In this document: piece by piece, positions 62,370 through 62,940 of the stretch
Layout of the letters: each line of letters begins with the position of its first letter
How positions within the stretch are numbered: the first letter of the stretch is position 1
Assembly (NCBI GenBank): GCA_016185395.1
Contig: JACPNR010000009.1
Location: 295,843-359,842, forward strand
Source of the DNA: Candidatus Korobacter versatilis
GTDB lineage: Bacteria; Acidobacteriota; Terriglobia; Terriglobales; Acidobacteriaceae
DNA: 64,000 nucleotides
Direction: 5' to 3'
Translations under genes and position numbers: made by a program
The notes under the pieces: model-generated
Told to the model about the DNA's origin: nothing
What the model saw: only the letters and a program-made list of their open reading frames with translations
The model's database searches: none

Positions 62370-62394
62370 GGTGTGCGGGTACTCAGTTTAGATG

Positions 62395-62830
62395 CACGAG
62401 GGCAGGCGAGGGGCTAGCCGTTGTGTCGCCCCTTCGGGGCTCGGATCGTTTTCTCGACGGTCACCCAGCCCTGCCGGGCTGGGCCATTGGCGACCGGCCC
62501 TTCGGGCCTGGAGTGGTAGCGGGCGCGGACGGTTGGGCGGCACAAGAAACGAGAGCGGAACCACGAGAGTTTCCCGGCGCTTGCTCGCGGGCGAGGTCGC
62601 TGTGACCTTCGGCCCGGAGGCGTTGCCAGCCCGCGATGTCTTGCTCGGCTGGAGAATCCCGTGGCGAAGGAAGCAGGCGCGAAGTGGGATCAGTGTCAGA
62701 GACGGATCCAGGCGCGAGGCGCCGGTCGCCAATAGCCCGGGGCGGAAGTCGTGTGTAGAGTCACGAGAGACATGAGCCCGCGTTAGCGGGCGACCCCACG
62801 CTGGCAACTCCGCGTCTTCCCGTCCGGCAA
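62395..62830. ncRNA. Hairpin-rich non-coding block; candidate structured RNA or miniature inverted-repeat element. Identity and strand unknown.
   Basis: About 570 nt lack a credible ORF; both overlapping track ORFs are Arg/Pro/Ser/Gly junk. Perfect hairpins at 62464-62483 (8 bp), 62428-62440 and 62496-62508 (GCCCC/GGCCC-UUC-loops), and 62776-62791 (GCCCGC-GTTA-GCGGGC). A 22-nt long-range inverted repeat joins 62479-62500 and 62719-62740. Confidence 0.3.
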
Positions 62831-62940
62831 AAACTCTGTATAATCAATCGTGCACCCTAGTTACACCCAGGCTCGAACGTCCAGCCAACGCCTGGGAGAA
62901 CCACCCTCCAAAAACTCCAGACTGCGTCGAGGCTCGTCTC

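Follow-up and report, generated by a model that had tools for sequence, protein, structure and literature searches.

Acido-Lenti-1 (RF01687; Weinberg 2010, PMC2864571) is a two-hairpin motif that Rfam files as a small RNA (sRNA) gene, and a 2026 preprint calls it 'abundant ... of unknown function'. In the literature that uses the name, judged partly from listings, we met no link between the motif and a transposase. Here we analyze a hairpin-dense block upstream of pyrG in Candidatus Korobacter versatilis, located in a stretch of 64,000 nucleotides (nt) that we refer to as the window (GCA_016185395.1, contig JACPNR010000009.1, positions 295,843-359,842 of the forward strand). The block contains two inverted units of an Acido-Lenti-1-type repeat, and units of the same family flank genes for IS200-like Y1 transposases in this genome and in relatives. 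We interpret the block as, most likely, mobile repeat DNA, and as neither a new structured RNA nor the leader of pyrG.

Repeats bordering transposase genes of this type have been described in Acidobacteria and elsewhere. Di Nocera 2013 (PMC3733652) reports Acidobacteria Y1 genes (TIRYT) with long inverted repeats at their borders, which can extend into the gene ends, an arrangement called the TIRtron. According to that account, which also describes a GGGGWSAS motif, some TIRtron repeats belong to moderately abundant dispersed families found as dimers or clusters, the proteins form a sharply defined Acidobacteria group, and in Koribacter, with three genes of this kind, a single repeat family is dispersed. 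For the repetitive extragenic palindromes (REPs) of E. coli, Ton-Hoang 2012 (PMC3333891) describes an enzyme that binds single-stranded REP DNA, with C|T important for cleavage, and notes that REPs persist in strains that have lost the gene. Finally, Quentin 2018 (PMC6006769) defines a TnpA-Y1 subclass 1.2, for which Table 1 of that paper lists a median length of 148 amino acids (aa) and the motifs DH[IV]H, WQ and YIKNQKEHH. The same source gives the subclass 1.7 copies per genome, 36% identity within a genome, the entry 'REP: no' and a distribution mostly in Cyanobacteria and Bacteroidetes.

Results

Two inverted Acido-Lenti-1-type units upstream of pyrG

The divergent intergenic region between a minus-strand open reading frame (ORF) and pyrG is 571 nt long. 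A first-pass annotation had listed six stem-loops at 62370-62838 within it, and had proposed that they form a novel structured RNA of about 470 nt. Direct reading of the sequence placed all six where they had been listed (Table 1), as well as a TATAAT at 62839-62844. When the entire 64-kb window was scanned with Rfam, a single match exceeded its gathering score: RF01687, at 62464-62509 on the plus strand, with 42.6 bits against a threshold of 37. This match accounts for two of the six hairpins and disposes of the claim to novelty. Compared with the full 46-position model, the sequence retains standard pairs throughout, and its 8-bp and 5-bp hairpins are joined by a 12-nt linker that begins with GCUA.

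The Rfam model extends only from the first of these hairpins (H1) to the second (H2). Alignment of the flanks of copies in this genome revealed that the repeat is longer, with a third hairpin (H0) located ~22 nt upstream of H1. A 95-position covariance model (R1), trained on 25 units of this genome that include both units of the window, detects exactly two full-length units in the window, in inverted orientation. Unit 1 is intact. Unit 2 is degenerate, with four non-pairs in its H1 stem; on the Rfam model it reaches only 17.4 bits (E=0.27, 62710-62741), which on its own falls below the membership score. A repeat search also identified a 42-nt inverted repeat, 62471-62512/62707-62748, that is 81% complementary. 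Five of the six listed hairpins correspond to H0, H1 and H2 of unit 1 and to H2 and H0 of unit 2.

The sixth, ATCCC...GGGAT, is located in the spacer between the units. Elsewhere in the genome the spacer has only chance matches of 16-18 nt, and among 40 relatives only 4, of which G029 and G038 are unpublished, have matches, which are 22-43 nt long and at chance level. It folds worse than its shuffles on both strands (z=+1.87 on the plus strand, +1.08 on the minus strand), and the ATCCC...GGGAT hairpin is therefore without support. We considered the spacer as a conserved or structured element in its own right and rejected this candidate: the sequence is unique, unconserved and folds poorly. Folding of the entire block, 62370-62838, is unremarkable for DNA of ~70% G+C (z=-1.03; 16 of 100 shuffles fold equally well). 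The hairpins proposed at the outset are thus real in five cases, as parts of a conserved, covarying repeat, and not in the sixth. The single ~470-nt structured RNA resolves into two inverted 95-nt repeats and a spacer that folds no better than shuffled sequence, and a known family together with an interspersed repeat explains the block.

Sequences from environmental samples were also compared with the element. Two short contigs of an independent sediment metagenome (X2) are identical to this sequence and stop exactly at the units; an identical 151-nt contig of X2 covers 62557-62707. Among the contigs of X1 and X2 none bridges the element, so no empty-site allele was recovered; this is uninformative either way. 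In an RNA run (X4, contigs), 6% of sampled words were found, only on the pyrG coding sequence of relatives and with at least 10 differences, and the run is silent on the block.

A dispersed repeat family with three covarying hairpins

In the 2.48-Mb genome, RF01687 gives 28 matches at E<=1e-3, of which 14 exceed the gathering score; 14 control genomes gave none. R1 identifies 30 units. The unit begins with H0 (tGyC-GCCCC...GGGGC-T) and continues through a T-rich spacer of ~22 nt, the 8-bp stem of H1, a near-invariant CT(A), the 12-nt linker and the 5-bp stem of H2. With genes predicted by a crude caller, 20 of the 30 units overlap no coding sequence, 7 overlap one by <=7 nt, and the remaining 3 share 41-97 nt with weak ORFs. 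The intergenic regions that hold units may be divergent, convergent or co-directional, and both orientations of the unit are represented. Besides the doublet in the window, this genome has inverted doublets at C5:157048-157291 and C9:78638-78849, and further doublets were found in the loci of relatives.

All three stems covary. Among the 25 units of this genome, 89.3% of the cells at paired positions are paired and 12 of 18 pairs show double changes, a result that 0 of 500 shuffles equaled. A second alignment, fitted to the model, comprises 150 units from 71 loci of other genomes; here 96.4% of the cells are paired and 16 of 18 pairs show compensatory changes, again with 0/500 shuffles as high, and sliding the pairing partners reduces pairing to 30-53%. 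Immediately after H1, the 150 copies have C in 149 cases, T in 148 and A in 106.

Several loci depart from the standard layout. At C10:8-327 (L001-L003), at the start of a 5.8-kb contig, three units with the highest scores in the genome (59 bits) are arranged in direct tandem with a period of 136 nt, and this array may continue past the contig end. The loci C13:72985-73150, C6:15826-15990 and C13:584806-584975 (L022, L023 and L027) carry a variant H2, GCGCGCGAGGACGCGCGC, followed by ~70 nt of conserved downstream sequence; given these shared features, they form part of a longer composite repeat, in which Rfam detects no other family. Two weak partial R1 matches elsewhere in the window, at 55214-55323 on the minus strand (17.0 bits) and 59870-59934 on the plus strand (16.4 bits), have E~0.05, lack H1 and are probably due to chance. 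No Rfam family other than Acido-Lenti-1 was detected at nine repeat loci of this genome. The Acido-Lenti-1 motif is reported to lie near group II introns in some genomes.

The units flank Y1 transposase genes

A search of the genome with PF01797 (Y1_Tnp) returned 8 matches. For each of the three best, at C9:65533-65859, C6:17143-17475 and C3:159844-160164, an inverted pair of units encloses the gene exactly; H0 is the gene-proximal hairpin on either side, and the units extend 4-7 nt into the gene. The corresponding proteins are 146-147 aa long and 37-43% identical to one another, and they contain DH[IVA]H, WQ and Y-x3-Q-x2-H[HP]. They score 69-87 bits on PF01797 and 62, 58 and 50 bits on the IS200 equivalog model NF033573, where two of the three exceed the cut-off of 55. 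The units beside the Y1 gene on contig C9 are the closest counterparts of most dispersed copies (17 of 24, both window units among them), and unit 1 of the window shares 80% identity with them. The transposase search beside the units covered the Y1 family.

On the gene strand at C9:65874-65900, H0 holds GGAGGA 7 nt before the transposase ATG, as seen by eye in this one copy. At this locus the H0 hairpin could mask the ribosome-binding site. The five weaker Y1_Tnp matches of the genome (32-49 bits; frames of 126-342 aa at C11:16739, C5:268129, C1:43410, C4:56825 and C3:218204) belong to a different Y1 class and have no unit from the genome-wide list.

The same association is found in relatives, 13 of 40 of which encode Y1 homologues at E<=1e-10. 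In a tally made by hand, 20 of their 27 loci have a minus-strand unit to the left and a plus-strand unit to the right, 4 have a unit on a single side, in two cases where a contig end cuts the locus, and the other 3 lack units. The Rfam model gives 34 gathering-score matches distributed over 20 of the 27 loci. We extended the survey to 80 Y1 loci in named public records. Units stand on both sides of the gene in 42 and on a single side in 14; the other 24, mostly from Bacteroidota, have no flanking unit. With phylum labels taken from record titles, flanking on both sides is seen at 34 of 46 loci from Acidobacteriota and at 8 of 34 others, which include Planctomycetota, Verrucomicrobiota and Chlamydiota; Rfam confirms the units at two loci from Planctomycetota. 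A test in the reverse direction started from 80 loci chosen by the H1 motif alone, and 5 of these, representing 4 distinct regions, have a Y1 homologue within 900 nt.

One relative, G022, carries 24 IS200-type genes of identical score on contigs C4-C7 (153-aa frame, 119 bits), which represent a true multi-copy insertion sequence (IS). No units were found at the 4 copies for which the locus was scanned, and G022 has no subclass-1.2-like Y1 gene.

The element is missing from the pyrG locus of relatives

The intergenic region between the 324-aa gene, as we refer to the minus-strand ORF, and pyrG measures ~150-456 nt in relatives. The closest comparison is with an unpublished genome of the same genus (G001), on which all statements about G001 rest. 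Its intergenic region of ~188 nt aligns at 62367-62396 and at 62826-62940, including the TATAAT, with ~48 nt in place of 62397-62827. If weak residual similarity is allowed, the missing segment is 62417-62809, which corresponds to the two units and their spacer. R1 finds 0 units at E<=1 at 14 pyrG loci from relatives, 8 of which keep the same gene pair. These comparisons bear out the earlier suggestion that the block is not simply the pyrG leader, as G001 lacks the block but keeps the TATAAT and the 115 nt that precede pyrG. Covariation, proposed earlier as a check on the region, is seen in the three stems of the unit over 150 copies.

The case for insertion does not depend on G001 alone, because a second doublet, C9:78638-78849, is also absent from G002 and G005: R1 finds nothing in the orthologous intergenic regions, which measure 58 nt in G001, 140 nt in G002 and 100 nt in G005. 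The single-unit site C13:526630 gave no clean empty site: the contigs of G001 end there, and the 90-nt intergenic region of G002 lacks a unit. Boundaries of the pyrG element are resolved to ~10 nt, and within that resolution no target-site duplication is evident.

Setting of the element in the window

The features of the region are collected in Table 1.

Table 1. The element upstream of pyrG, its parts and its neighbors (window positions)
Feature	Coordinates	Strand	Evidence
Whole inserted element, ~388 nt: two inverted 95-nt units, H2 ends facing, 196-nt spacer	62416-62803	.	R1 full-model matches at both ends
Unit 1, intact: H0 62428-62440 (GCCCC/GGGGC), H1 62464-62483 (CCCAGCCC/GGGCTGGG), linker GGGCC-ATTGGCGACC, H2 62496-62508 (GGCCC/GGGCC)	62416-62511	+	R1 87 bits, positions 1-95
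Spacer between units, unique; holds ATCCC...GGGAT, 62656-62690 (5-bp stem, 25-nt loop)	62512-62707	.	Genome search, relatives, folding
Unit 2, degenerate: H0 62776-62791 (GCCCGC/GCGGGC), H1 with mutated 5' arm, linker CTATTGGCGACC intact, H2 62711-62723 (GGCGC/GCGCC)	62708-62803	-	R1 59.2 bits, positions 1-95
Upstream proximal region of minus-strand gene, outside element	62370-62415	-	62378-62396 identical in G001
Putative pyrG promoter and leader, outside element	62826-62940	+	~90% identical to G001 including TATAAT
Flanking 324-aa gene, divergent from pyrG, no Pfam family	61395-62369	-	Open frame
Flanking pyrG (CTP synthase; name from the first-pass annotation)	62941-64000, runs off window	+	353-aa open frame; relatives 86-97% identical (tblastn)

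The block had been called non-coding, and this assignment stands. Two long ORFs that cross it have G+C contents of 0.64-0.70 at the second codon position and 0.69-0.70 at the third, compared with 0.45+/-0.04 and 0.85+/-0.06 for genes of >=300 aa (n=1009), and neither has a Pfam match above the cut-off. A protein-coding block was rejected on these grounds. The block had also been described as the longest stretch of the window without a credible ORF; the crude gene caller leaves five longer gaps in the window, at least two of which hold long ORFs that it dropped. A scan of the window for tRNA and tmRNA genes found none. Within 62200-63100, Rfam families other than Acido-Lenti-1 gave only sub-threshold chance matches (Yfr1, 19.4 bits; MIAT, 11.5 bits).

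Conservation between the two same-genus genomes points to a putative pyrG promoter at 62826-62940. Between the TATAAT and the pyrG start, the sequences CCCAGGC (62866-62872) and GCCTGGG (62890-62896) form a 7-bp stem with a 17-nt loop, the arms of which are identical in G001 while the loop differs; this may be a candidate leader hairpin of pyrG. The 324-aa protein has a hydrophobic N-terminus, with homologues in 15 of 15 same-family genomes searched and 0 of 9 from a sister family, and its gene adjoins pyrG in the loci of 8 relatives.

Discussion

A probable mobile doublet and how it may have arrived

The block is most likely a lineage-specific REP/REPIN-like doublet of ~388 nt, of the TIRtron type, composed of Acido-Lenti-1-type units and probably mobilized by IS200-like Y1 transposases. 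It is a DNA-level repeat sequence and not a dedicated regulator of pyrG. As a mechanism, we propose that the hairpins form in single-stranded DNA, where they would be recognized by a Y1 enzyme that would cleave at the conserved CT beside the foot of H1. Units or doublets would then be mobilized in trans and would land in intergenic DNA, in this instance in the gap that separates the divergent promoters of pyrG and the 324-aa gene. Transcription of the element, if any, would be a passenger of neighboring transcripts.

The principal competing view takes the units, or the entire block, to be a discrete functional small RNA, in line with the Rfam label 'Gene; sRNA', and treats the association with transposases as secondary. 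We regard this as unlikely. One argument for it is the strong compensatory covariation in all three stems, yet hairpins acting in DNA would give equal covariation. A match above the Rfam gathering score and the entry 'RNA? y' for the motif in Table 1 of Weinberg 2010 (PMC2864571) also favor an RNA, and the many units that persist in genomes without a Y1 gene could reflect a host function. The distribution of the units, in both orientations relative to their neighbors and in every type of intergenic region, speaks for DNA instead, as do the broken H1 stem of unit 2 and the absence of the block from the orthologous locus of relatives. A consensus scan of 62300-63000 found 0 promoter-like sites (two-hexamer sigma-70) and 0 terminator-like sites. 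On the modeled strand we count 12 G-U pairs and 40 A-C mismatches, 28 of the latter in H1; G-U is rarer than A-C on the Rfam strand, and there is therefore no sign of wobble tolerance at the RNA level.

Two further explanations are much harder to sustain. In one, highly improbable in our estimation, the element is a classical miniature inverted-repeat transposable element (MITE) or IS remnant moved by another transposase (e.g. DDE), or consists of the decayed ends of an ordinary IS200, rather than a REP-like repeat served in trans. Terminal inverted repeats of 95 nt are long, a total length of ~390 nt is typical of MITEs, and two of the three Y1 proteins pass the IS200 equivalog model. Against this stand the lack of a visible target-site duplication at boundaries resolved to ~10 nt and the inverted arrangement of the flanking units, since IS200 ends are on one strand as described in Quentin 2018 (PMC6006769) and Ton-Hoang 2012 (PMC3333891). 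The low mutual identity of the three Y1 proteins also shows that their genes are not copies of one IS, and the true IS200 of G022 is without units in the copies scanned. The least probable of the explanations we weighed makes the block part of the regulation of pyrG, as a leader or upstream element, or of the 324-aa gene. The same repeat is present at ~30 unrelated loci in the genome, the block is absent from the G001 intergenic region and was undetected at the loci of 8 syntenic relatives, and it lies upstream of the putative -10, so that it would be outside the pyrG transcript if that promoter is used. What speaks for a regulatory role is position: the block precedes both the conserved TATAAT, by 36 nt, and the start of the 324-aa gene, by 46 nt, and in 6 dispersed units the H0 end falls within 100 nt of the start codon of an opposite-strand gene.

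Our preference for a mobile doublet served by Y1 enzymes has to accommodate a number of observations that weigh against it. The three Y1 proteins score 20-25 bits on the REP_Tyr_transpos model NF047646, for which the cut-off is 80, and so fall outside that clade; judged by sequence they are not classical REP-associated transposases, although their gene context resembles that of one. Read on the opposite strand, the tag beside H1 is nTAG, and strict GTAG (CTAC on the modeled strand) is present in 22 of 150 copies. A copy number of ~30 is at the low end for REPs. The geometry of the window doublet also differs from that of its relatives: H0 is on the outside, as opposed to the inside around transposase genes, and the spacer measures 196 nt as opposed to 24 and 49 nt in the other two doublets of the genome. 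Because of the reversed H0 orientation and the much longer spacer, the doublet is not a simple deletion derivative of a transposase locus. Dependence on the transposase is not strict either. Units are still present in 10 of the 27 relatives that lack a homologue at E<=1e-10, with at least 69 in G022, at least 46 in G008, at least 23 in G018 and at least 11 in G017, and at other Y1_Tnp genes of the gene-less relatives a unit was found at only 1 of 16 loci, ~800 nt away. The repeats can thus outlive the Y1 gene or do without it. At the element boundaries no target-site signature could be defined, and mobility is suggested by comparisons between species, the cleanest of which involves an unpublished genome. 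The units may, in addition, have a role at the RNA level.

Implications

For the window itself, the analysis does away with a false lead, since the hairpin block before pyrG consists of repeat DNA rather than a new riboswitch-like RNA. For annotation, it provides a testable identity for an abundant Rfam family, whose model could gain a third hairpin, and sites that genome pipelines label as sRNA genes may need relabeling as REP-like repeats. The units may also matter for assembly, and some of the breaks in metagenome-derived genomes can be attributed to them because contigs in an independent metagenome break exactly at units.

A broader proposal, which we favor by a small measure, is that Acido-Lenti-1 is not an RNA gene and is instead the core of a 95-nt, three-hairpin recognition module in single-stranded DNA. 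The module would serve a widespread domesticated clade of IS200-like HUH-Y1 proteins of the subclass 1.2 type in Acidobacteriota, Planctomycetota, Verrucomicrobiota and Chlamydiota, a type reported without REPs, and would spread in trans, both one unit at a time and in the form of inverted doublets able to carry ~200 nt of foreign spacer, as in the window. H0, which would overlap the start codon and ribosome-binding region of the transposase gene, could also throttle translation of the enzyme. As far as we have searched, the assignment of Acido-Lenti-1 to subclass-1.2-like Y1 transposases as their DNA repeat looks new, and its novelty is modest. It would extend REP-like systems of repeat plus transposase beyond Proteobacteria to a Y1 subclass described without repeats.

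Comparison with described systems

With Acido-Lenti-1 as defined in Rfam, the copies in this genome share the covariation of H1 and H2. They differ in that the repeat is 95 nt long with an H0 that covaries as well, and in that it is an interspersed DNA repeat flanking Y1 transposase genes where Rfam records an sRNA gene.

The TIRtrons of Di Nocera 2013 are close in arrangement: three Y1 genes are present here too, bordered by 95-nt inverted units that overlap the gene ends by a few nucleotides, and the family has ~24 dispersed units. The single dispersed family reported for Koribacter parallels the closeness of 17 of 24 dispersed units to the flanks of the C9 gene. From the descriptions in the text of that paper, as compared with our units, the repeats it reports may be Acido-Lenti-1.

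With REPs, BIMEs, REPINs and REPtrons, as described in Ton-Hoang 2012 and in Bertels and Rainey 2011 (PMC3116915), the family shares short extragenic palindromic repeats and inverted doublets. In both, a single-copy, diverged HUH-Y1 gene is flanked by inverted repeats, a CT-containing single-stranded tag lies at the foot of a hairpin, and repeats are kept in genomes without the gene. The differences are that the protein here is IS200-like and fails REP_Tyr_transpos, that the unit has three hairpins in 95 nt where REPs have one imperfect palindrome of 20-40 nt, that the tag is nTAG as opposed to GTAG, and that copies number tens per genome as opposed to hundreds.

Among Y1 transposases, the three proteins resemble subclass 1.2 of Quentin 2018 in length, motifs and low identity within the genome, an assignment made by motifs only. 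In contrast to the entry for that subclass, dispersed repeats flank the genes here, and the hosts are Acidobacteriota, Planctomycetota, Verrucomicrobiota and Chlamydiota. IS200/IS605 elements (subclass 1.1) belong to the same HUH-Y1 fold family and also have hairpins beside the gene ends, but the genes described here are not multi-copy and near-identical, and their flanking hairpin units are inverted and not on one strand.

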